Source: Prorocentrum cordatum (taxonomy: Eukaryota). Taken from it: a stretch of DNA of 64,000 bases. The number at the start of each line of letters is the position of its first letter. Position 1 is the first letter of the stretch. Shown here one piece after another: positions 20,397 to 50,990 of this stretch. Location: positions 930,001 to 994,000 of the forward strand of contig CAUYUJ010000225.1 of NCBI GenBank assembly GCA_963575745.1, in the 5' to 3' direction. The notes below the pieces were generated by a model. The model did not search any database and was not told the DNA's origin. It was given only the letters and a program-made list of their open reading frames with translations. Made by a program: the position numbers and the translations under genes.

Positions 20397-20562
20397 TGTA
20401 AATGATGCGTTTTACCTGCAGCGAGGGCTTAACAAAGCCGTGATGCCAAAGGCTGAAAGGTGCACCTGAACGCACAGGCAATTTGGGAAGAAACGCCATC
20501 GGCATGCGAGCGCATACACATGTACACAATATACGCATGTCAACTAAGCTCGCACATTCACA
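20397..20562 (-). repeat. 3' LTR (166 bp)
   Basis: Near-identical to 28398-28563 and preceded by the TSD ctgcc. Confidence 0.95.
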
Positions 20563-20719
20563 CTGATCTTAAAACATTGTTCCCGAAATTGGCTGGAACA
20601 CGAATGCACGGATTATCTGATTATTGTCGCCGTCAGGCGTAAAATAAACACCACAAGATACGAAAGCTATGCAAATGTAAACGTGATTGCTCGGCGCTCA
20701 GGCACAAAAGAAAAACAGT

Positions 20720-23700
20720 TCACTGGCCCTCGTCCGGGCCTGGCAAATTCCTCGGGATGCGCAGCGAACCCGAGACCAAGCGACAGAACTGACCTGTCAA
20801 ATCCATCGTCTTAGTGAGAACATCGGCCAACATATAAGCTGTGGGGACCCACCGCATCGGCACATCTGCCACGTTCATACTCTCGCGGGGGTCCACGGCA
20901 GCCTCCAGCTGCATGGCCTCACGCAGCCAAGCCAGATCCATGATCCGGCGCTTCTCCTGCGGGAGCTTACCGGCGTCCCGCTGGAGGGTGCCGTACAGCG
21001 ACTTGCAATCCGTCACACACGTGATCGGGAGCATACGAATGTTGGCTAGCATCTCACGGTTGGTCACATCTAGGTCGGCATACATCATCTCGAGTATCAC
21101 AGCGCGCACAAACTCTGCTGAATCAAACGCCTCGGTACAACTCTGAGTCTCGGCAGCGAAGGTACTCCTAGCCACGCGCGGCAGCGTGTGGCTTCTCCAA
21201 TCCACCAGGATCGCCTTTCCCGGGCGTCCTTCAGCAACTGCACGCTCGCACAGGTAGACCAGGTACCCCGCCTGCGAGTGGACCTTCTCTCCTTGAGCGA
21301 TCCGACGTAGGGCCTCATCCTCGGTGAGTGCGTTGCGCCATGCAGCGTCGTGGTAGACTATCAGGCACCCCGGGGACTCCACGTCCAGCTTGGGGATGTG
21401 AAACTTCTCGCTGGCCGAACTCTGCAGCACTCCGATGGCCTTGTTGACGTCCAGCAGGTCTTGGATGCAGGGGGCATTCTGCTTGCGCTGGGCCATAGAT
21501 ACCGCACACGACAGGTCGGGTCTCGTCTCTCGAGCTGGCCATCCCAAACTGCCGACTGCACTGCGATTGTCCGCGATCTCGCGGGCATTACACTCCAGGC
21601 TCGGATCACGCTTCCGGGCCTTGTCGATCTCGATCGGCTCGAGCCTGCCCTCGATGAAGGTCGACTGGCCCAGCAGGAAACCTCCTTCTGGGTCCGCCTG
21701 CAGCAGCTTCCCGCAGAACACCACAGGCACGTGACGCCACTCGCCGAAGTTGAAGAGACCTCGAACTCCCTGACGTAGGGCCTGCGACCTCGTGGCTACG
21801 AGGAGATCGTCAGCATGTACGCAGACCAAGATACACAGCCTGCCGTCCTCGTTGAAGCCGCGGAACACCGTCGGGTCGAGACGGGACTGCATCATGAGGA
21901 TAGGCTTGCCATCCTCGTCCTTCAAGTCCGCCTCGACCAGGCCCCGACGCAGACGTCGCCACCACAGCCGCGGCGCATCCGCAAGCCCGAAGATGCCCTT
22001 CTTGACCTTCAGGAGGCACCGAGGGTCCATATTCGGCAGGCCCTCCTTGGGCTGAGACATGTAGAGCTCCTCGGCACGCCCGTGCTCCTCGCCCTGCATG
22101 AAGGCACACTCGATGTCGCCGGCCACGATATCGAAATCGTACGCCGCCGCCACTGCCAGGAAGGTGAGCACCGAATGCCTTGACACGGTCGGTGCGTCGG
22201 TCCTGAGCCCCATCGCGAGGTCCGGGTCGCTGTGGCCACCACGGCACAGCCGAGCCTTCGGCTTGGGCGGCGCGTCCTTGACTCCAGCGTTCTTGTTCCG
22301 GTAGAGGAACCTCGACGTCAAGATGCGGCTCTGGTGGGCTCGCTCACGAACCTTCTGACTTTCCTCGACTGAGGGCGGCTCGACGGCGTCGTAGTTCTCC
22401 CACTGCTTCCACTGCAACTCGGCCACCTCGCGATAGAGGGGGCGGTCGCTGGCTGGAATCATGTTCCATGGCATCTCCTTTTCCAGCGCTCGACGTTGCA
22501 GCCTGGTCGTGTTCCAGCTCCGCTTCGCGATCAGGCCGAAACTGAAATTGGCGAAATGAACGGGCTGTTCCGGATGATCGCCTGGGTGCTGAAGCGGTCC
22601 GACAGGGAACGGACGGAACACCTGGCCCTGCCGGGCTTGTAGAGCCGCCCGGCGCTTCTTGAACTCCTCCTTCGCGCATGGAACTCCTTGTTCGGGCAGA
22701 GCTGGCTGAGAGGGCGTCGCTGTCGACGCGGGAGGCTCCACGCGGGTCGACGACGCGGGCCCCGATGATGCAGCTGCCTCCTGCCGCTTGCGGGGCGGCT
22801 CGTCCTCCAGGCGCTCGGCAGCGTCAGCCGGGCGCTTGTCCCTCTCGATCTCCTCGATCTCCAGCTCCAACTCTCTCGCTCGCTCCTCGAGGGTGTCCCC
22901 GAGGTCCTCGCCTTCTCTCCGCTGTAGAGGTTGGGCCTTCTCTTCTGCTTCACGTGGTCCCCGCCCTCGGTCGTCTTCGTACTCTGGCTGGTCCTCCTTC
23001 TCGACCTGGCGGATGAGTTCGTTCAGCTCCTCGACGTTGGGATCGTCGCCCTGACCGGGCCACCAGATCTCCTCATCCTCAGCGGGTCGGAGCTGCTCGT
23101 GAGAAACTTGAACGGTCCCAGCACCATGCGAGAGCCAAAAGTTGGACGCTCCCGCTGGGCCGATGACGACGGCTGGGCCTCGCCACTCATGGAGCTTCGT
23201 CCCCTTGCGCAGCCGCCAGTAGAACACCAGGTCACCGTTCTGGTAGTTGATGCAGGTGACCCTCGGCTTCCGCAAGAGTGCTCGACGGAGCGCTTGACTA
23301 TTCTGCAGCTCCACGAAGGCCGTCCGCGCAGCCGTGCGGATAGCCATCCTCCTGGCGAGCTCCGTGGACACGCGATGCATGCTGTGCTCTGCAATTTGGC
23401 CGGGTCGATCGATCAGGTCGGCAGACATGTTAGGCGAGCATCCGTACACCCATTGCGACGGTGAAAAGCCGCAGATCCGACGCATGTCGTTCTTGGCCTG
23501 GCAGGTTTCCCAGACGGCGGTCTCAAGGTCACCGCGGCTCGTGACTGACTTGTGCTCGACGACGCGGTTGACCATGAGCTTGAGCCAGCCGCCATGCCGC
23601 TCAGCGCGGCCGTTCTGCCACTGCGCCTGGCCCGCCACGACCTTGACGCGGATCCCCATCATGTCCATAGCCTCCTGAAGCTCGGTGTAGAACATGCCGT

Positions 23701-25174
23701 CTGGGTCTAGCCTGACCACGCTAGGCGGTCCAGCAGGCCACAGCTCTCGGAAGACCTTAGCCACGGTGGCTGGCTTCCTGTTCTTCAGGTAGCGTGCGAC
23801 GTGGTACGTCGTGGAGGCCTCGACGAGCGACAGGAACAGGTAGGGCTTCCCGTGCACGTTCCGAAGGTAGAGGCCGTCGACGCCCAGCTCGTCATTGAAG
23901 CCGCCGACGGGCGACAGGCGAGATACTCGATGAGATCCCGCAGCAGGCTTGGTCCTGTTGCACGTAGCACAGCGCAGGTGCTTGGCGCCGCGGACGAGGG
24001 CATCGTCCGCGCCGTTGAGCCTCAGGTTCCTGGCCAGGTCGTCGTTCGAGGGATGCCCGAGGTTCTGGTGAAGGCGTCGAAGGTGAGATCGAACCTCCAG
24101 CGGCAGAATGCCAGCCTTCTCCCCGAACGAGATCGCTCTGGAGCCCATGGGCTCCTCCTCGGGTGCCTCGTCGTCCTCGTCGTCGACGTCCGCCGCCATG
24201 GCCTGGTAGCTCTTGTTGCGCACCTCCTCGAACGCGTCGACGATGCGCCGACTGAAGTCCTTGGTGTAGACCTGGCTCCAGGAGATGCCCTTACTGCCAT
24301 AGCCCTTCAGCTCCGCGTGGTCGTGGTCCTCTGTGCACCGCAAGCCGCAGTGCTCCTCGAAAGGTGCGTGAGTCGCCAATATCCTCGTAGGCTTCTTGAC
24401 TGCCTTCCCGGTCTGAGGGCAGGTGAGGCCGTGCGCGCACATGTCAGTCTGGAACTCGACCACGCCTGGCAGTTGCCTGAGCCTCTTCCACGGGCCCTCG
24501 TTCCAAGACTGCCCCAGCCACGGGTGCTCCAGCACAGCCATGCGTCCGCCCTCGTACTGCATCCCGAAGAGCTTCTCGACTAACTTCAGCGTCGGCAGCT
24601 CCTTCAGCCGCGCCCGCTGCGGGCGCTGCTTGTCTCCCTTGAACACGAGGTTCTGCATGTGGCTCCAAATCCTGCAGGTCGGCTCGAGCACCAGGCAGTC
24701 TGGCTTCTCGCGATCCACGAAGTCGATCAGCTGCTGCTGGACATTCGGCTTCTTGAGATCGTCGCCGTACTCGATGTCCCAAGGCTGGCCGACACGAAAA
24801 CCTCGACGGGCGGCCTCGCGCGATGCCGCGGCCTTGCCACCCCAGATCTCCACGAAGTTGATATTGGCGCCGTCCTCGTCGACCGCGACGCGCACCTCCT
24901 TGGCGGCGGGCTCCCCCGCGGCCCTGGTGAAGCTGGCAAGGTTGAGGCCAGCCGACTCGCCGATGGTCGCCGCGAGGCGCATAGCTGGCAGCGTCCACGA
25001 AGTCAGAGCGCCACGAAGCCCGCTAATCACGCGCTTCTTCATCCCGCGGCGCAGGGGCCGCTTCACTTGACCAGCTGGAAACCGAGATCGAGGTGGTTCA
25101 TCAGCTCCTTGTCCTGGTCGGTCTCGGCCGCGTTCGACTCGGCCTCCGCCTCGCTCAGCTCGGACTCGTCGCTC
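20720..25174 (-). CDS. pol: Copia Pol part: C5-methyltransferase-like + integrase + RT + RNase H (same frame as gag, after one TGA)
   Basis: HHCC zinc motif HQNLGH...CATC. Integrase GVDGLY / RLDPDGMF / QNGRAERH. RT KARL..GH.DPD, DAPT, DIECAFMQG, KGIFGLADAPRLWW, VHADD. RNase H YHDAAW, STFAAE, TDCKSL, LADVLTK. The frame is open from 25174 to 20720. Confidence 0.93.
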   Translation of the reverse strand, partial: ERRVRAERGGGRVERGRDRPGQGADEPPRSRFPAGQVKRPLRRGMKKRVISGLRGALTSWTLPAMRLAATIGESAGLNLASFTRAAGEPAAKEVRVAVDEDGANINFVEIWGGKAAASREAARRGFRVGQPWDIEYGDDLKKPNVQQQLIDFVDREKPDCLVLEPTCRIWSHMQNLVFKGDKQRPQRARLKELPTLKLVEKLFGMQYEGGRMAVLEHPWLGQSWNEGPWKRLRQLPGVVEFQTDMCAHGLTCPQTGKAVKKPTRILATHAPFEEHCGLRCTEDHDHAELKGYGSKGISWSQVYTKDFSRRIVDAFEEVRNKSYQAMAADVDDEDDEAPEEEPMGSRAISFGEKAGILPLEVRSHLRRLHQNLGHPSNDDLARNLRLNGADDALVRGAKHLRCATCNRTKPAAGSHRVSRLSPVGGFNDELGVDGLYLRNVHGKPYLFLSLVEASTTYHVARYLKNRKPATVAKVFRELWPAGPPSVVRLDPDGMFYTELQEAMDMMGIRVKVVAGQAQWQNGRAERHGGWLKLMVNRVVEHKSVTSRGDLETAVWETCQAKNDMRRICGFSPSQWVYGCSPNMSADLIDRPGQIAEHSMHRVSTELARRMAIRTAARTAFVELQNSQALRRALLRKPRVTCINYQNGDLVFYWRLRKGTKLHEWRGPAVVIGPAGASNFWLSHGAGTVQVSHEQLRPAEDEEIWWPGQGDDPNVEELNELIRQVEKEDQPEYEDDRGRGPREAEEKAQPLQRREGEDLGDTLEERARELELEIEEIERDKRPADAAERLEDEPPRKRQEAAASSGPASSTRVEPPASTATPSQPALPEQGVPCAKEEFKKRRAALQARQGQVFRPFPVGPLQHPGDHPEQPVHFANFSFGLIAKRSWNTTRLQRRALEKEMPWNMIPASDRPLYREVAELQWKQWENYDAVEPPSVEESQKVRERAHQSRILTSRFLYRNKNAGVKDAPPKPKARLCRGGHSDPDLAMGLRTDAPTVSRHSVLTFLAVAAAYDFDIVAGDIECAFMQGEEHGRAEELYMSQPKEGLPNMDPRCLLKVKKGIFGLADAPRLWWRRLRRGLVEADLKDEDGKPILMMQSRLDPTVFRGFNEDGRLCILVCVHADDLLVATRSQALRQGVRGLFNFGEWRHVPVVFCGKLLQADPEGGFLLGQSTFIEGRLEPIEIDKARKRDPSLECNAREIADNRSAVGSLGWPARETRPDLSCAVSMAQRKQNAPCIQDLLDVNKAIGVLQSSASEKFHIPKLDVESPGCLIVYHDAAWRNALTEDEALRRIAQGEKVHSQAGYLVYLCERAVAEGRPGKAILVDWRSHTLPRVARSTFAAETQSCTEAFDSAEFVRAVILEMMYADLDVTNREMLANIRMLPITCVTDCKSLYGTLQRDAGKLPQEKRRIMDLAWLREAMQLEAAVDPRESMNVADVPMRWVPTAYMLADVLTKTMDLTGQFCRLVSGSLRIPRNLPGPDEGQ
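24230..24870 (-). other. Cytosine-5 DNA methyltransferase-like domain within Pol
   Basis: Ordered motifs: I FVEIWGGKA (24856), IV PDCLVLEPTC (Cys at ~24676), VI AVLEHP, then DMCAHGL and KKPTRIL (VIII-like), then C-x3-H-x-H and SQVYTKDF. The layout matches DNMT domains reported in dinoflagellate retrotransposons. Confidence 0.82.
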
Positions 25175-25968
25175 TCATCGTCGACTCTCGCGAGGTCCTG
25201 GCCCAGGCCCCAGTCCACCTCCGCCGCCGGGACTGGCGTCGTCACTGCTGTCCGAGTCGGTGCCGTCCGAATCCTTGCCAAGCGATCTTCTTTGGTGTCC
25301 AGGCTCACGTGAGATGACGTACTCGGGGGACCTCGCTTCTTGACCTTGGCCTGGATCTCCCTCGCCATGGGAGGTGTGCTTGGAGTTGCCTTCGGGGGCG
25401 GTCCTGCGCTGCTCGACTGCGCGGACCTTCTCGAAGGAGTAGCCGAACCCAGCAAGGACTTCGCGGAGACGGCGCTGGATGGCATCGGACCTTCTGCTGC
25501 TGCCCACGCCTTGATTCTGAGCTTCAGGGCGTCCGCCGTCCCGTCGAACGCGATGCCTGCAGCCTGGCAGAAAGCGATGGCCTCGGGCTTCTTGAGCTTG
25601 CTGAATCCCGACGCCAGCTTTGCCCTGGGGGTCCCCTTCTGGTGTTTTGCCTCCTCGGGCGGTCGAGTGGCTCGCAGGCTTTCCCGCAGGGCTGCACGCG
25701 TCTCGCTTCCCGAGGTATCCACTCCTATGGTCAGCAGCTCCGCGCGCAACTCCGCCTTCGTCATCTGAGTGATCCCCTTCCGAATCGGTCTCACATGAGT
25801 CAACCTCGAGATGATACACTTCCGGTAGCCCATGCTGATCATCACGCCGCGCATGGGTGTCATGAGAGCCTGGGCCGCATTCATCAAGATCTGGGCGAAG
25901 CGCCACCATGCCCGCCGAGGATCTGGTCGCTTCTGAATCTGGCCCGGCATATGCCGTAGAGGGCCCAA
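25063..25968 (-). CDS. Overlapping alternative-frame ORF with two SAP/LEM-like motifs and an acidic tail (up to 301 aa; ATGs at 25950 and 25764)
   Basis: MTKAELRAELLTIGVDTSGSETRAALRESL and SKLKKPEAIAFCQAAGIAFDGTADALKLRIKAW both fit the L-x2-E-L-x6-G-x4-G-x4-L-x2-R-L helix-extension-helix pattern. Ends DDESDESELSEAEAE...FQLVK*. It lies entirely inside the gag-pol frame. Confidence 0.68.
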   Translation of the reverse strand: MGPLRHMPGQIQKRPDPRRAWWRFAQILMNAAQALMTPMRGVMISMGYRKCIISRLTHVRPIRKGITQMTKAELRAELLTIGVDTSGSETRAALRESLRATRPPEEAKHQKGTPRAKLASGFSKLKKPEAIAFCQAAGIAFDGTADALKLRIKAWAAAEGPMPSSAVSAKSLLGSATPSRRSAQSSSAGPPPKATPSTPPMAREIQAKVKKRGPPSTSSHVSLDTKEDRLARIRTAPTRTAVTTPVPAAEVDWGLGQDLARVDDESDESELSEAEAESNAAETDQDKELMNHLDLGFQLVK

Positions 25969-28327
25969 CTGATATGGAACATGAAATTGGACTCATCCTG
26001 AGAGGTTGATTTGAGCCTGGGGCTACGGAAGTCGATGTACACGTTTGACCATCTCGAACTTTTGATTGCTGCTTGTTTTGATACTGCTCTGCATTTTCTC
26101 TGGCTCGACCTCCGCGTTGATAAGTTCGCTCTGCATTGTGATAAGCTCGATCTGCATTTTGATAAGCTCGATCTCCATTCTGGCGATGCTGATATGCTTT
26201 ATCATGCTGTTGCTGCTCCAGGGCTTCGTATTGCTGCTCAATCTCGTGCTGCCGCTGCTCGTTTTTGTAGACCATGAGCGTTTGCTTGATGTCCTGGACC
26301 TGGCCTGGCACTTCTGGATGCTGAGCCTGGCGATAAGACGGCTGACGACCACGATGATGACCTTGACTATGGCATTGAATCTCTGGCGCCGTCTCGTCCA
26401 AGACTGCTCCTGGCGGCGCCACCCAGCCTTCTGCTGGGAACTGAAACAAGTTGAGCAGCGGATGCTGGGAGTCAGCTTCTGTGACCGGCACGGGTGGCAC
26501 ACCCAGCTCCTCGGGAAAACTGAAGGTGCTGGTCCTCGGGTCGTCGCGGATCCCGAGCTGCTTCGCCGCTGGCCTTGAAAAGAGCAGCGGCAGGTCGCCT
26601 GGCACAATGCTGACTCGCAGAACGCCTGAAATACGATGTGAAACACATGTCGGGATCAGCGCTGCAAAGGTGCTCCAGACCGGGTCGCCAGCTCCAAACC
26701 GGAACCGCTCCTTCTCGTCGGCCCGCTGGTACCTCAGGCCACGCGCGCAGCGCCTCAAGAGCGCCGCCCACAGCTTCAGCAGGTTGTGGCCCATCGCGGA
26801 CCTGGTGCAGCCGCTGTCATAGATCGCGAACCCGACGCGCCTCCGCATCTCCTCGAAGGAGGCGAAGATGAACACTGGGAACGAGAGGGCCAGGAAAGAG
26901 TAGAAGCCCGAGCTAGTGTTCGGCTTCTTCTCGCCACTAGGCTTGGGCGCGCTCCTGGCCGTCGTCGTCGTCCTCGAACTCATCGCTGTCATGACCCTGT
27001 GCGGCTCCGCCTCCGCACAGCCGCTGTCATGGATAGCCAACATCGGCCTGCGAGCTCCCGACGAGGGCGGTCCTCCTCCACGGGTCTTGGGGCACTCAGG
27101 GTCGCCCTTCCAGTGCCCTCGCTGGTCGCAGGCCTTGCAGACTGAATTCTTCTTCAAGTCGTCAATCTCCTTCTGCCTCTTGGGGTCTCGTTGAACCTGA
27201 TGCGGTGCTGACGGCGGAGGGTAGCCCCGCTGGATCTTGAAATCCTTCATTTTGAACTTTGCACTCGCGAACTTCATTCGAAACTTATCCTTCTGCTGGA
27301 AACGTTTGTTGCTCTCACGAAAACCTGCCACGTACGCCTCCGCCAGCGCCGCCATGGTCTCATCCTGGTCGTCACCGGGCTCCTGGTCGTCAGCGTCGTC
27401 CTCGAACTCATCCAGGCCCGGGAGGTCGGTAGGGTCTCCACCGTTCGCCAAGAAAGACTCCACGGCTTCGTACTCGTCCTCGTCCAGGTCGTGTAGGTAG
27501 TCCTGGACTGGGTCGTGCACCTCCTCATCGTCGGGCTCGGCGTGCATGGCACGATGTTGTCCACCTCGTGGGGCGAACCTCTGAAACTTCTTAGGCTTGA
27601 ATGTCTGATCTTGTCCGCGGCCGCCTGGTCGGTCGAACTCAGCAACATTTGGGCAATTTCTCTCGGCCGCCGCGGACATCACCTTGAAATCGTAATCGTT
27701 GTTCGCACTGGCCAGCACCATCGCACGTCGATCGCTCGGCAGCCGCAGCTTCTCCAGAAAGAACCATCCGAGCACCATCGCGGGCAACGTCACGGCGAAC
27801 TTGGCCAGGCGATGCACGAGAGTGTTGAACCTCCTCTTGAACGTACGTATCTGCTCCTGGGGCCGCCTTTTGAGCAGGACAAAGAACTCATGCAGCACAT
27901 CTCCTTGTCGCAGTATCTCCTGCTCCTCAAAGCGGTCTTTGAGCTCGAGCATCAGAAACTCGAGCCCTCCTGGCTCGGCGAGCCTCTGCATGTCGATGTC
28001 TTCGACGGCGGCCCAAGCATCATCCTGCAGCCTAGCGTAGAGCGCTGGGCCGCGCCGCTCGGACCTGAGGGAGGTCGCCAGCTGCCAGGCTTCGACGCGC
28101 CGCGAGAAGTCCCGCCAGCCACTCCCGTCGAAGATCGGGATGGGGAGGTTGTCTCGCGTGCCGCCGCCGTCTCTGTCGGCGACTCCGACGGGTGTCTCGG
28201 GCGCCGCCTCGTAGTCTTCCGCCTCCTCGTCATCGAGCTGCTCGAAGTCGTCGTCGTCGTGCCTCTGTGGAGGCGGAGCCCGATCCGCACGGCCACGGTC
28301 GGGAGACCTCCATACGCGAGCCGCCAT
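25175..28327 (-). CDS. gag: Copia Gag-protease part of the polyprotein (1050 aa)
   Basis: Gag N-terminus (PIFDGSGWRDFSRRVEAW...RRGPALYARL), zinc knuckle CKACDQRGHWKGDPEC (~27092-27139), aspartic protease AIYDSGCTRS (~26815), RFRFGAG flap and LPLLFSR. Confidence 0.9.
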   Translation of the reverse strand: MAARVWRSPDRGRADRAPPPQRHDDDDFEQLDDEEAEDYEAAPETPVGVADRDGGGTRDNLPIPIFDGSGWRDFSRRVEAWQLATSLRSERRGPALYARLQDDAWAAVEDIDMQRLAEPGGLEFLMLELKDRFEEQEILRQGDVLHEFFVLLKRRPQEQIRTFKRRFNTLVHRLAKFAVTLPAMVLGWFFLEKLRLPSDRRAMVLASANNDYDFKVMSAAAERNCPNVAEFDRPGGRGQDQTFKPKKFQRFAPRGGQHRAMHAEPDDEEVHDPVQDYLHDLDEDEYEAVESFLANGGDPTDLPGLDEFEDDADDQEPGDDQDETMAALAEAYVAGFRESNKRFQQKDKFRMKFASAKFKMKDFKIQRGYPPPSAPHQVQRDPKRQKEIDDLKKNSVCKACDQRGHWKGDPECPKTRGGGPPSSGARRPMLAIHDSGCAEAEPHRVMTAMSSRTTTTARSAPKPSGEKKPNTSSGFYSFLALSFPVFIFASFEEMRRRVGFAIYDSGCTRSAMGHNLLKLWAALLRRCARGLRYQRADEKERFRFGAGDPVWSTFAALIPTCVSHRISGVLRVSIVPGDLPLLFSRPAAKQLGIRDDPRTSTFSFPEELGVPPVPVTEADSQHPLLNLFQFPAEGWVAPPGAVLDETAPEIQCHSQGHHRGRQPSYRQAQHPEVPGQVQDIKQTLMVYKNEQRQHEIEQQYEALEQQQHDKAYQHRQNGDRAYQNADRAYHNAERTYQRGGRARENAEQYQNKQQSKVRDGQTCTSTSVAPGSNQPLRMSPISCSISVGPSTAYAGPDSEATRSSAGMVALRPDLDECGPGSHDTHARRDDQHGLPEVYHLEVDSCETDSEGDHSDDEGGVARGAADHRSGYLGKRDACSPAGKPASHSTARGGKTPEGDPQGKAGVGIQQAQEARGHRFLPGCRHRVRRDGGRPEAQNQGVGSSRRSDAIQRRLREVLAGFGYSFEKVRAVEQRRTAPEGNSKHTSHGEGDPGQGQEARSPEYVISREPGHQRRSLGKDSDGTDSDSSDDASPGGGGGLGPGPGPRESRR

Positions 28328-28397: not shown

Positions 28398-28563
28398 TGT
28401 AAATGATGCGTTTTACCTGCAGCGAGGGCTTAACAAAGCCGTGATGCCAAAGGCTGAAAGGTGCACCTGAACGCACAGACAATTTGGGAAGAAACGCCAT
28501 CGGCATGCGAGCGCATACACATGTACACAATATACGCATGTCAACTAAGCTCGCACATTCACA
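28398..28563 (-). repeat. 5' LTR (166 bp)
   Basis: Plus strand tgtaaatgatgcg...gcacattcaca. One mismatch to the other copy (gcacagAcaat vs gcacagGcaat). Confidence 0.95.
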
Positions 28564-29036
28564 CTGCCCGCAGCACGGTTCGTCTCACTTGTAGGCGTGA
28601 GGCTGGTGCTCCTGGTGTCTGTTATGCAATCCAACGTCATGGTGTCCGACTCCGTCGTGCTGTTCACCGTCATGTTACTTATCCCAGATACGCTGCTCAC
28701 AGGCGTACTGCTCGCTGCAACGTTCGTCGCACTCGTGGGCGTGATGCTGGTGTTTGTGCGCGTCGTGCTGCCCAAGGTCGTGGTACTCGACTCCGTCATG
28801 GTGCTCACCGTAGAGATACTGATCCTGGGCGTGCTACCCCTCGACAGCGTACTCTACCCCTCGACAGCGTACTGCTCCCTGCGGTGTTTATCACACTCGC
28901 GGACGTGAGACTGGCGTTGCTTGTACTGGTTGTGTTTCCCATCGTCGTGATGCCCGACTCCGTCGTGCTGCTCGCCGTCCGTGTGTTGCTCCTGGACGCA
29001 TTCTTCGCAGACGTGCTGCTCGCTGCAGTGCTCGTA

Positions 29037-29448: not shown

Positions 29449-29686
29449 GTTTTCAAAAAAAACGCCCATCTCTGATGCGTGTTGAAGCGGGCCCACCCCC
29501 CCCGCCCCAAAATTCGAAGTTCGGTGCGTGCGTTCGACGCGGGTAAATGCGAGTCGCTTCGACAAAAAGCGCCCACATTTGCAAACCGCGGCCTGCTCGA
29601 TTAGATGAACATTGAAATTGGGGGCGCGGGGGAAGCTCTTGCGCCATCTTCTGATCGTTGTACCTGGGCGTATTTTTCGAAAACGC
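29449..29686. mobile_element. ~238-bp MITE with ~20-bp TIRs
   Basis: gttttcaaaaaaaacgccca vs the reverse complement of tgggcgtatttttcgaaaac. It interrupts the S/T-rich repeat. Confidence 0.65.
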
Positions 29687-31983
29687 CTGTAATACCCGAC
29701 TTCGTCGTGCTGCTCGCCGTCGCAGTACTGGTCCCGGGCGTGCTGCTCGAAGGCGTACTTCTCGCCGTATTGCTCGTCGCACTTGTGGAAATGATGCTGG
29801 TGCTGCTGCTTCCCGTCGTGTTCTGGGCGTCGCTGAGCGTCGGCAAGTGCACGCAAGATCCCGTCGTGCCGCGTGGCACAGCAATGCTCGGCTCGGCCGT
29901 GCTGCACATCGTCGTAAAACGGGTCCCAGACGCGCTGCTAGGGAATGTGACGCCCTCTGCTCTGTCCGTTCCGCGACTCCGGCGGGAGGGAGACGAGGAG
30001 GAGCAGGAGGAAGAGGAAAAAGAGGAAGAGGAGGAGGAGATGGAGGAGGAGGAGGAGGAGGAGGAGGAGGAGGAGGAGGAGGGGGAGGAGGAGGAGGAGG
30101 AGGAGGGGGGGAGGAGGAGGAGGAGGAGGAGGAGGAGGAGGAGGAGGAGGAGGAAGAGGAGGAGGATACGTGTCCCGGCACGAGCGCACACCAGGCGGGG
30201 GGCCGGTGCCCGAGACATAGAGGAATGAGGGTGAGGGAGAGAGCCAACGCCGAGGGCAAAGCATCCCCGAACTGTCCCCTCCCTCCCTCCCTCCATGCCC
30301 TCTCCTCCCTTCCCCCCTCCCCTCCCCTCCCTCCTCCCTCCCTCCCGCCCCCCCCCCTCCCAGCCGCCGGAAACGGGGGGGGGGGGCCGGCGCGAGCCGC
30401 GTGCCCGGAGGCGAGCCGCCCCCGAGCCGCGGCCCCCCGCCGGCGAAGGCGGCCCGCCGAGGGCCGCCGGCCGGCGGATCCCCGGTCGTCCCAGAACCTC
30501 GGCGCCGGAGGGCGGCGGGGGAACAAGGATGGGGGAGGGGAAGAAGGAGGAGGAGGAGGAGGAGGAGGAGGAGGAGGAGGAGGAGGAGGAAGAGGAGAAG
30601 GAGGAGGAGGAGGAGGAGGAGGGGAAGGGCGAGGCCCTGTAACTGCGGGGCTTGGAAGCTGTACGAAAGAAAACATGGCGACAATAAGATGTCCATTGCA
30701 GTGCTCACCTTTTCCGCACGCGATACAGGCGCGCGCCGGCGCTGGAGCCAAACGGCCGCATCACATCCAATTCGAGTCGGGATTGCGCGGGCGGTCGAAC
30801 AGCTCTGGCGAAGAGGGACAAAGGAATAAGGGAACTAAATATGTCCAGTACCCAACGCATTCTAAACTCAGGAGAAATACCCCGTCGCTGTTTGACCCAG
30901 AAGTGCGCGACGCGGCGGGGCGCGAGCTTGCCCTTGTGATGGGTAGCCCCCTCGTGCTCTTAGGAACGGCACTAGAGGAGCTTACGCGCGTGAGTGATAG
31001 TGGCGTTAGTTCTCCCAGCCGCATCTGCGTATGTTGGTGACCTTGGGCCGCGGACGTGATGTCTGAAAGCTTGTCCTAAGATTTCGGCAACGCGATGGCC
31101 CCGGGGCCACGTGATGGGCGAGGACGCCTTGACCTGGTAGATAGGAAAAGGTGATGGATGAAGCAAAACCACGAGGGATGCGCGCGCTTCATGGCACGAT
31201 CGCCTCGAGGTCCACCGCAATCAAAGAGTTGCGGGAGCCACTCCGTCTATACGACTGAAGGACACCTCCTCGCTGGGAGTGCCACGGGCCTCAACCTCCT
31301 CAGCCTCGGCCCTCGGCACTGCCTGCGGGCGAGGGCTGGCCTGGCTCGCCGGCGGCAACCGCGCGAGCCAGGCCAGCCCGTCGGCCAACCGCTGGCGCGC
31401 CGGCGCTTGACCCCCCCCCCTTGCCCCGCCCGTCTTCTCATTATTCTTCTTGCTGGGCATGTCGGCGCCGGTCGCTCGCATGGGCTCGTTTTCGCTCTTG
31501 TCCACGCCCTCGCCCTCGCCTTCATTCGATGCGATCGCTGCGTGCCCGCGGGAGCCGATGGGCGCCATGGCCCCCGCCCTCGCCCGGAACGGGCGCGGCG
31601 CTGAAGGGCGGGGCAGCGTCGGTCTCCAGCTCGAACCGCGAGCAGCGCTGCCCCGCTCGAACTGCGCCTCGTCGCCCTGGGGCAGAGGCGAGTACCTGGG
31701 CGGAGTCCCTAATGAGAAATGCCGACGGGGAGGAGTGCGCGGCGCGCGCCCACCCTGTGGCGCTGGGGAGCGCGATGGCCGCGGCGTCGGCGGCGCTGGC
31801 CTCTTGGGGCCCAGCTGGCTGCTCTTGGTAGAGGGAGAGCCAAGGGCCGACCCATCGAGGGCCAAGAGGGCCTTGCCCGAACGCTGGCCACGAGCCGAGA
31901 TTGGCGAGTGCCCAGAAGCGGCGGCGCTCGGCCCTCCATCGCGCGGCCGGGCGGCGACCCGCCTTGGTCGCCGCGGACTCGCC

Positions 31984-49869: not shown

Positions 49870-50990
49870 CAATGATATTCGATCACCTTGATGAGGTACC
49901 GTCGGGCCCCGCAAAAATAATCCTTCAAGAAAACGACGATCTTCTGCAACCGGTCGTGGAAGACGCGGGCGACGATGTCGGGTCTGTCGGCAGCCGTTTG
50001 TCCGCGGCACAGTTGGTTCACAATCTCTGGCCAAGAAGGGTTGCACGTCAGGGTGATGAAGAAGGACGGCGGGCCTTTGCGTCGCGCCAGCTCCAGGGCG
50101 TCGACGCGCAATCGCCGAAGATGGCGAGGTGACCCAGGGACGCTGGACGGTAGGACGTACTGCTTGCCAACGGCCCCTGCCTTTCTGGTATCGTTTGCGA
50201 GCCCATCGCAAAGCTCCTGTCGAGTTGGGCAACGCTGTCGTTGTTGGTGACGAATGTGGGAAAACCTCTCGTGTTCCATGCGCGTGAGCATGTTGATGAG
50301 CCACTCATTGAGCAGCCGCCCGCAGAGGTGCATGTGTGTGACGCGAAGCAGTTGTTGGCGATACCACCACATTTGTGTAATTTTGTGGCCAGTGGTGCTC
50401 GCAACGTCAGTGCTCCAGCCGCGGCCACCGAACGGGTACCACAGGGGGTAACTGAGGGGCTCGTAGAAGGGGCTTAGCGGGTGCAGGTAAGCAGGCTTGT
50501 CGTTGCGCTTGCACGTGAAAACGATGGACTGGTTGTTGCGGTCGTGACCGGGGCCGACGTCCAGTATACCAGCCACTTCGTTGACCCCCTCATGCCACTC
50601 CAAGATAATGTTGGCGTTTGCTGCTCGTTTGGGTTGGGGAGGGAAACGCTGAATGAGCTGCATGTGGGCGTTCCGCAGCACGATGAGCTTCTCGAGCGTT
50701 TCGGTAGTGTGCTTGTTGAGGCCGTGTTCTGCGGCGGTGGCGAAACGGTCCTGCGGGTCGTGCACCAAATATCGAAGGGTGACCTGGTCCGCCAGAGAAA
50801 ATACGCGGCGATAAATTGTCCCATGAATACGAATGTTTGCTGGACGGCGGACGTCTCCGAATCGAAGTTCCGGTGCTGCACTGGATTCCGTGTTGTGCGA
50901 GAGCGAAAAGGCTACGGCTATTGTAACGTCTCGATTGCGCTGTGAAGCCAGTGTAGCAATGATCGTTGGCGGGGGCGTCATAAACATTGT
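49870..50990 (-). mobile_element. Helitron Rep (Helitron_like_N) fragment
   Basis: YEPLSYPLWYPFGGRGW, GRLLNEWLIN, LPSSVPGSPR, PSFFITLTCNPSWPEI, DRPDIVARVF, VIEY. Homology stops just before the HUH motif. Confidence 0.88.

Follow-up and report, generated by a model that had tools for sequence, protein, structure and literature searches.

A stretch of 64,000 nucleotides from the dinoflagellate Prorocentrum cordatum (contig CAUYUJ010000225.1, positions 930,001 to 994,000; hereafter the window, in whose own numbering all coordinates are given) contains, on its minus strand, a Ty1/copia-type long terminal repeat (LTR) retrotransposon whose gag-pol frame and a second frame are both open over about 885 nt, the second frame encoding a protein with two SAP motifs. 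Our preferred explanation is that the second frame stems from a host gene, whose processed and trans-spliced mRNA was taken up out of frame with the polyprotein, and that the gag-pol frame was kept open across the captured cDNA. We give this whole explanation, with all its parts taken together, a probability of about 0.55. The gag-pol frame, with the first bases of its codons at coordinates 1 mod 3, is called frame A, and the second frame (0 mod 3, +1 relative to A) is called frame B; both are read on the minus strand.

Frame B is free of stops from 25992 to 25066 (309 codons) and ends with a TGA at 25065-25063, in agreement with the original prediction of a second frame open for about 300 codons inside gag-pol. 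Frame A runs from the ATG at 28327 to the stop at 20722-20720, and exactly one internal stop lies between 28342 and 20723. The accompanying description of gag-pol over this stretch as an R/G-rich, by-product-like frame that is open except for one TGA (25177-25175) also held, and so did the overlap of the frame-B stop with a frame-A GTG codon (25066-25064). Position 25968, given earlier as a limit of the open reading frame (ORF), is neither the start nor the stop-to-stop limit; the ORF probably begins with the ATG at 25950 and then has 295 codons. The features that carry the argument are as follows; P0012, P0002, and P0003 are public gene models from three other copies of the element.

25063-25950, minus strand: frame-B ORF for the tandem-SAP protein, 295 codons plus TGA, +1 to the polyprotein (translation, HMMER relatives, and codon usage)
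25951-26009, minus strand: putative former 5′ untranslated region (UTR) of the captured mRNA, 59 nt, between the relict leader and the ATG at 25950
26010-26029, minus strand: relict dinoflagellate spliced leader, T-CCGTAGCC-CCA-GGCTCAA-A (gapped pattern search)
25043-26029, minus strand: frame-A spacer, 329 codons across the presumed captured cDNA (translation and composition)
25175-25177, minus strand: TGA, the sole frame-A stop, private to the window copy among the four compared (comparison with P0012, P0002, and P0003)

The openness of frame B alone is no proof of a gene. When the DNA was shuffled synonymously with the frame-A protein and its codons kept, 1.32 ± 0.91 stops were expected in frame B, with a probability of 0.17 for none, and four other frames across the same GC-rich stretch, the other strand included, also hold ORFs of more than 150 codons. 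Judged by homology and codon usage, frame B is a real gene and not a chance ORF. The 309-residue translation (P0001) was used as a phmmer query against a database of 1.84 billion representatives, and 10 matches were obtained at E ≤ 0.001, 7 at E ≤ 1e-10, and 4 at E ≤ 1e-30. Two of the ten, P0002 and P0003, are long gene models of related copia copies, and seven (P0004-P0009 and P0011; 68-464 residues) are not fused to any retroelement protein. P0010, a bacterial immunoglobulin (Ig)-repeat protein, was discounted as a spurious match. The closest protein matches are named by NCBI as belonging to P. cordatum. Among the unfused relatives are P0004 (464 amino acids, E = 7e-43) and P0005 (321 amino acids, E = 2e-32). 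Over 176 amino acids, P0004 and the window protein share 49% identity, compared with 41-52% among the unfused proteins themselves. Over the conserved core, the unfused relatives are 27-54% identical to frame B and share, where covered, a segment RRxWWR...LMTPxRGVxVSMGY, SAP motif 1, SAP motif 2, and GPxPxGAxSA. A word-indexed protein search with P0001 found nothing among proteins of 169-541 residues, a blank of little weight, as the same search missed P0004 and P0005; an alignment-based search of JGI metagenome contigs confirmed none of 596 pattern matches.

The relatives begin to align with the stop-to-stop ORF at about its residue 16. P0004, P0005, P0008, and P0009 have a start Met ahead of the WW motif, P0006, P0007, and P0011 being shorter pieces, and the Met at 25950 aligns with the first Met of these four proteins, the start preceding the WW motif by 12-17 residues in each case. 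The ORF is therefore taken to have 295 codons and a start of its own. The parts of its protein, numbered as in P0001, are listed below.

25798-25920, minus strand: conserved N-terminal helix pair, RRAWWRF...LMTPMRGVMISMGY (invariant columns; helices 25-44 and 46-65 in the AlphaFold2 (AF2) model)
25666-25773, minus strand: SAP motif 1, residues 74-109 (Pfam PF02037; AF2 helices 79-89 and 99-109, block means of the predicted local distance difference test (pLDDT) 87-93)
25498-25602, minus strand: SAP motif 2, residues 131-165 (alignment to SAP-passing relatives; AF2 helices 135-145 and 153-165, pLDDT 94-97)
25102-25185, minus strand: acidic tail, residues about 270-297 (translation)

Two helix-extended-helix motifs, an S/P/A linker, and an acidic tail had been predicted for the alternate ORF, and all are found in the frame-B translation. 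The motifs had been described as SAP/LEM-like. The tandem SAP assignment was supported, with a profile score just short of the cut-off: Pfam SAP (PF02037) matches residues 74-104 of the window protein, motif 1 only, with 22.6 bits (E = 8.2e-5; gathering cut-off 23.9), and five of the six unfused relatives scanned pass the cut-off with 26.0-36.7 bits, P0006 and P0007 on both motifs. Motif 2 of the window protein aligns with a stretch that passes the cut-off in P0004, P0005, P0007, and P0009, and its best PDB sequence match is the SAP domain of 3′hExo/ERI1 (E = 0.07). The LEM part was not supported, since the Pfam scan of P0001 gave no LEM or HeH match at E ≤ 1. In the AF2 model, made with an eight-row alignment, both SAP motifs are predicted as two short helices with an extended loop (pLDDT block means 87-97). 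Foldseek found no match to this model at E ≤ 0.001; its weak rows include SAP domains, 1zbu, 2do1, and DEK. As a separate observation, P0004, P0005, and P0007 carry a zinc-ribbon-like motif, CPxGHG...FWGC...C, after the SAP pair, which the element-borne copy does not have; Pfam Zn_ribbon_Top1 scores it weakly on P0004 and P0007 (E = 0.026-0.051) and gives no score on P0005.

Upstream of the ORF lies a decayed copy of the dinoflagellate spliced leader (DinoSL), whose consensus is DCCGUAGCCAUUUUGGCUCAAG and whose relicts in retrogenes usually lie at -50 to -100 nt from the start codon (PMC6050394). The relict keeps 17 of the 22 leader positions, with a 2-nt loss, and stands 59 nt upstream of the ATG at 25950, within the reported range. 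The pattern CCGTAGCC-N(0-8)-GGCTCAA, which was chosen after the sequence had been viewed, has a single match in the 64 kb (26028-26011) and none in 100 shuffles; by arithmetic, its 15 fixed bases should give about 0.001 chance matches. An ungapped search of the window for the leader 21-mer with up to three mismatches found nothing, and a local-alignment scan with gap penalties left the relict at 26029 unranked, as it splits into two blocks. Of the two frame-B stops that precede the ORF, one falls in the leader (TAG, 26025-26023) and the other in the UTR (25995-25993). The unfused homologues, the relict leader, and the stops in the UTR together lead us to conclude that frame B was captured as a trans-spliced cDNA. 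The original prediction of an ORF overprinted on gag-pol does not fit, since frame B appears to be the older sequence, with seven unfused relatives and a relict leader. A second leader-like relict, CCGTAGCCTTTTCGCTC, was seen elsewhere in the window (50902-50918, minus strand; local alignment score 25, versus 22 for the best of five shuffles) and may mark another retrogene.

We also compared the two frames by composition. A codon-usage score trained on the element's own gag-protease (gag-PR) and pol gave +0.166 bits per codon for B, -0.128 for A, and -0.589 for C over the ORF, and the best-scoring frame changes from A to B near 26200 and back to A near 25100. The third-position GC content (GC3) of frame A is 0.7-0.87 through most of the element and 0.36-0.65 at about 26500-25100, where that of frame B is 0.59-0.79. 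Upstream of about 26300, the GC3 of frame A is 0.63-0.87, and in the Q-rich stretch it is 0.36-0.57. The frame-A translation of the overlap (residues 784-1055) has no relatives in the word-indexed search, a weak result, as that search also missed true frame-B relatives. By these sequence measures, frame A is the secondary, by-product reading, the reverse of an "overprinted ORF". In composition, the spacer is 15.8% G, 13.4% R, and 10.3% S; residues of disorder-promoting classes make up 84% of it, and hydrophobic residues 14.9%, compared with 30.3% in pol. From the leader to the base before the frame-A ATG (25042-25040) there are 987 nt, or 3 x 329.

Unlike the openness of frame B, the scarcity of stops in frame A is not trivial. 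When frame B was shuffled synonymously, 7.85 ± 2.19 frame-A stops were expected over the ORF, and 1 was seen (P = 0.001). Only 1 of the 31 frame-B codons ending in T stands before a codon that begins with AA, AG, or GA, although 26% of codons begin so and 8.1 such cases were expected. The longest off-frame run in the element controls was 193 codons. Over 290 residues, P0012 and frame B of the window are 91.4% identical. At the site of the frame-A TGA, the window encodes Asp (GAT) and P0012 encodes Glu; P0002 and P0003 also have Glu in the alignment. With Glu there, the frame-A codon of P0012 would be AGA or GGA, and the TGA would thus be absent from it. Of the 25 inferred single-base differences of P0012, none creates a frame-A stop. 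Frame A of the common ancestor was probably open throughout, for which the Poisson probability is at most 0.003 at the control rates of 2.0-3.3 stops per 100 codons (arithmetic), and a continuous Gag-Pol probably reads through the captured gene as a spacer. A role of the TGA as a programmed readthrough stop was considered and dropped, the codon being absent from P0012, P0002, and P0003. The frame offset is common to separate copies: all three of these models jump from A to B and back to A, and 25224-25950 is matched gap-free by a 728-nt contig that comes from another copy and another data set.

With the anatomy, the homology, the relict leader, and the two open frames established from the sequence, we propose the following course of events, in which the mode of capture, the selection on frame A, and the expression and function of B are inferred. 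A host mRNA that encoded a tandem-SAP protein and carried the spliced leader would have been joined to the element, most likely because the reverse transcriptase switched templates. The cDNA, consisting of the relict leader, the 59-nt 5′ UTR, and the coding sequence with its own ATG, lies between the protease and the next Pol domain. Pol would have to be joined to Gag, and only captures that left frame A open could have spread. Frame A would then read the 329 captured codons as a Gly/Arg/Ser-rich, probably disordered spacer from which stops have since been purged, and the TGA of the window copy would be a private point mutation. Frame B still encodes an intact 295-residue protein with the helix pair, two SAP motifs, S/P/A linker, and acidic tail. 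This protein would most likely be made from its own mRNA starting just upstream, for example by trans-splicing at the AG of the relict leader, and its likely job would be to tether element DNA or particles to host DNA.

Several results, however, weigh against this explanation. Five of the 22 leader positions differ, including the 2-nt loss in the T-run, and the leader pattern was fixed only after inspection of the sequence. The 3′ boundary of the cDNA and the direction of transfer rest on inference. SAP in the window protein is just below the Pfam cut-off, and no Pfam SAP row at E ≤ 0.1 was obtained for the element-borne P0012, P0002, and P0003. Off-frame stops are also scarce elsewhere in the element: in pol, 29 stops occur among the 1440 codons read in the -1 frame, compared with 48.4 expected under independence, and 3.8% of 1145 windows of 295 codons in pol have at most one stop in that frame (0 of 381 in gag-PR). 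With about 14 independent control windows, a fair P for the openness of frame A in the window copy is about 0.03. As for selection on frame B, the signs point both ways. The start codon and the invariant residues of the family are kept in the window copy, and among the listed substitutions in 25063-25992 relative to contigs of other copies, 6 of 8 fall on frame-B third positions (P about 0.02), 5 of these being synonymous. This listing covers 40 of 778 substitutions and 12 of 29 indels, so that the codon-position test has 8 sites, and pol shows no excess of third positions in the same listing (7 of 23). Between the window and P0012, the 25 amino-acid changes are distributed 12/11/2 over codon positions 1, 2, and 3, as in neutral decay.

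A rival reading is that the capture took place as described and the SAP frame has been unused since, so that only the polyprotein frame is translated. Frame B would then stay open because selection on A blocks frameshifts and because Gly/Arg-rich frame-A sequence rarely makes stops in B; the 1.32 stops expected in B given A, with their probability of 0.17 for none, are in line with this. The same holds for the neutral appearance of B between the window and P0012, for the SAP signal, which is weaker in the element copies than in the unfused relatives, and for the models, since P0002 is without the N-terminal part and P0003 uses frame A for some of the region. An unused frame does not readily account for a window protein whose identity to P0004 (49%) lies in the range found among the unfused proteins, for the retained start codon and invariant residues, for the 6 of 8 substitutions at third positions, or for two SAP motifs that are both predicted to fold with pLDDT above 90. 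We regard such a disused passenger as unlikely but as deserving real weight. A layout of three ORFs, in which Gag-PR is joined to B by a +1 shift or by cis-splicing (the annotators' 26436-to-25938 junction), reinitiation at the ATG at 25042 or at the overlapping GTG yields Pol as a separate product, and the openness of frame A is due to chance, is improbable. Ty1 uses a +1 frameshift and provides a precedent; the frame-A ATG lies 20 nt after the frame-B stop, and frame-A conservation with P0002 and P0003 resumes there, at "GLRGAL". In the P0012 model, an intron with GA as donor and AG as acceptor connects "DETAP" in A with "IQKRPD" in B, and the exit from B comes at its last codons. This model is a prediction, however, and P0002 and P0003, which read decayed copies, bridge the frames in other ways; the frame-bridging introns of all three look like prediction artefacts over retroelement copies. 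The frameshift route proposed in the original prediction was not supported: the Ty1/Ty3 +1 heptamers CTTAGGC and GCGAGTT are absent from 26100-25000, and of the X_XXY_YYZ type there are only two sites, one at 25966 (zero frame B) and one at 25685 (zero frame A), both misplaced or out of frame, which leaves no usable -1 slippery site at either junction. Moreover, Pol made apart from Gag is normally not packaged, and the layout leaves the scarcity of frame-A stops unexplained.

An origin of B de novo inside a pre-existing gag-pol would account for two open frames. It is already contradicted by unfused relatives that have 27-54% identity over the core and the same architecture and start, by the relict spliced leader, by the better codon usage of B, and, in a weak search, by the lack of detectable relatives of frame A, and its probability is very small. 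It is smaller still for an offset created by two compensating indels or assembly errors, with SAP in frame in the true element. Only one copy of the element was found in the window by self-BLAST, which would leave room for such an artefact, but in three other copies, too, the gene models have to change frame on either side of the segment, and the contig from another data set spans 25224-25950 without gaps. In addition, an accidental -1 frame would hold about 6-8 stops and not 1, and two frame-B stops lie directly upstream of the ORF. Captured leader-tagged cDNA with a frame A kept open thus remains the explanation that we prefer.

Whether the SAP protein is still made is, on the sequence evidence, close to an even question, with the balance slightly toward no. 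The relict leader retains the AG at 26024-26023, and relict leaders in transcripts start just past that AG, at CCATTTTGGCTCAAG (PMC12014239). The AG at 26024-26023 is accordingly a candidate trans-splice site. An RNA starting there would have its first AUG at 25996 in frame A and its second at 25982 in frame C, both within the UTR, and its third at 25950 in frame B. A further step, which we consider doubtful, is that the roughly 885 nt are read in both frames and that the SAP protein, from a subgenomic trans-spliced mRNA, anchors cDNA or particles to the histone-poor chromosomes and guides integration. If this were true, the element would directly demonstrate that the reverse transcriptase of copia can change template to a host mRNA with a leader cap, long suspected as the source of the thousands of dinoflagellate retrogenes. 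A SAP protein that is still made would be an element-borne DNA tether in a nearly histone-free nucleus, with a bearing on the choice of integration sites.

Gene capture by LTR elements, retrogenes with relict leaders, and overlapping frames in reverse-transcribing elements have all been described. Dinoflagellate retrogenes with a relict DinoSL have been reported (Slamovits and Keeling 2008 as cited in PMC6050394; PMC5585692; PMC12014239). As in those retrogenes, an intronless coding sequence is preceded by a decayed 22-nt leader at a distance of 50-100 nt from its start, and the internal AG of the leader is a known re-splicing point (PMC12014239). Here, in contrast, the retrocopy sits in the ORF of a copia polyprotein and moves with the element, not in chromosomal DNA. 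Captured genes or extra domains in LTR elements are described for rice and sorghum (PMC3726574), for extra ORFs in bdelloids (PMC5408684), and for a demethylase domain in orchid Ty3/gypsy elements (PMC9289625). There, too, a host-derived coding sequence lies between LTRs and is propagated with the element; the captured sequences are separate ORFs or in-frame domains, whereas here the sequence is out of frame and the polyprotein reads through it. In the main texts of the literature searched, as far as they were seen, we found no report of a leader-tagged host cDNA placed out of frame inside a read-through copia polyprotein. According to reviews, the source retroelements of the very many dinoflagellate retrogenes are unknown and Ty1/copia is suspected (PMC6050394).

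Against this background, the relict leader and the host coding sequence inside the polyprotein of this copia element would be a fossil of the suspected template switch, and copies of the element family can be surveyed for it. It would also represent an unusual route to overlapping frames, in which a foreign cDNA is inserted and the polyprotein then reads through it, in place of slow overprinting. In the public models for such loci, the frames are connected by introns that were invented for the purpose of annotation.

The hepadnavirus polymerase has a spacer that overlaps preS in another frame, and expression of the second frame is proven there. The arrangement proposed here is alike in that a tolerant, disordered polymerase spacer lies over DNA whose other frame encodes a constrained protein. 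The lineages are unrelated, however, and overprinting in a compact virus is replaced here by the insertion of a foreign cDNA, with a second frame known from sequence alone. Compared with SAP proteins such as ERI1/3′hExo and Hcc-1, the frame-B protein likewise has 35-residue helix-extended-helix motifs, two in number. It differs in its own conserved N-terminal helix pair, and three unfused members of its family have a weak topoisomerase-type zinc ribbon.

The remainder of the element was analyzed by self-BLAST of the window, translation, and Pfam searches. The element (28563-20397, minus strand) is a young, structurally complete Ty1/copia-type LTR retrotransposon, as concluded from the RVT_2 match, the near-identical LTRs, the 5-bp duplication, and a frame A interrupted only once. 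Its main parts are the following.

28398-28563, minus strand: 5′ LTR with TG...CA ends (self-BLAST; ends read base by base)
26030-28327, minus strand: frame A, Gag and protease part, from the ATG at 28327 to a Q-rich low-complexity end (translation)
20720-25042, minus strand: frame A, downstream part, with a domain at about 24919-24152 followed by integrase-like, reverse transcriptase, and RNase H regions (Pfam RVT_2)
20397-20562, minus strand: 3′ LTR with TG...CA ends (self-BLAST; ends read base by base)

The direct repeats (20397-20565 and 28398-28566) are 169 bp long and 99.4% identical, and a 5-bp target-site duplication, GGCAG, flanks both LTRs (28568-28564 and 20396-20392). Adjoining the 5′ LTR is a candidate primer-binding site, TGGTAGCCGGAGC, which we take to be similar to those of copia elements. 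A protease DSG motif was recognized by eye in frame A. Pfam RVT_2 matches residues 947-1132 of the downstream ORF (E = 1.4e-11), identifying a copia-type reverse transcriptase; the integrase region lies upstream of it according to motif reading and to the source name given to P0012, and Pfam rve gave no score on that region.

At 24152-24919 (minus strand), after the captured gene and before the integrase region, Pol has a conserved domain that shares 64-69% identity with P0002 and P0003. This domain had been called a DNA methyltransferase (DNMT) domain, an assignment that gained no profile or fold support: no match was found in Pfam, PHROGs, or NCBIfam at E ≤ 1 or among PDB sequences, and the AF2 model of the region (pLDDT 31.9) is unusable. 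The sole sign is a language-model lead, the nearest named ESM Atlas cluster of a stored relative being a C5 methylase (0.82), and by eye the region contains methyltransferase-like strings (FVEIWGG, EPTC, and LEHP). Retrotransposon DNMTs are known from Symbiodinium and Klebsormidium, where the source describes them in LINE, DIRS, and charophyte gypsy elements, not copia, and as detectable with Pfam (PMC5890265). The Symbiodinium elements resemble the present one as dinoflagellate retroelements with an extra Pol domain; the difference is that the domain here has no Pfam DNA_methylase match and its element is of the copia type.

Two further observations concern the surroundings of the overlap and of the element. 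In the Q-rich stretch just upstream of the relict leader, a 21-nt unit is repeated three times in tandem with 90% matches (26118-26179, minus strand); its translation resembles DRAYQNA in frame A and IELIKMQ in frame B, and P0003 reads its counterpart in a B-like frame. Just outside the element, at 29453-31040, DNA of about 68% GC holds several overlapping ORFs of 300-460 codons in different frames on both strands, which indicates that long open frames are cheap in such DNA.

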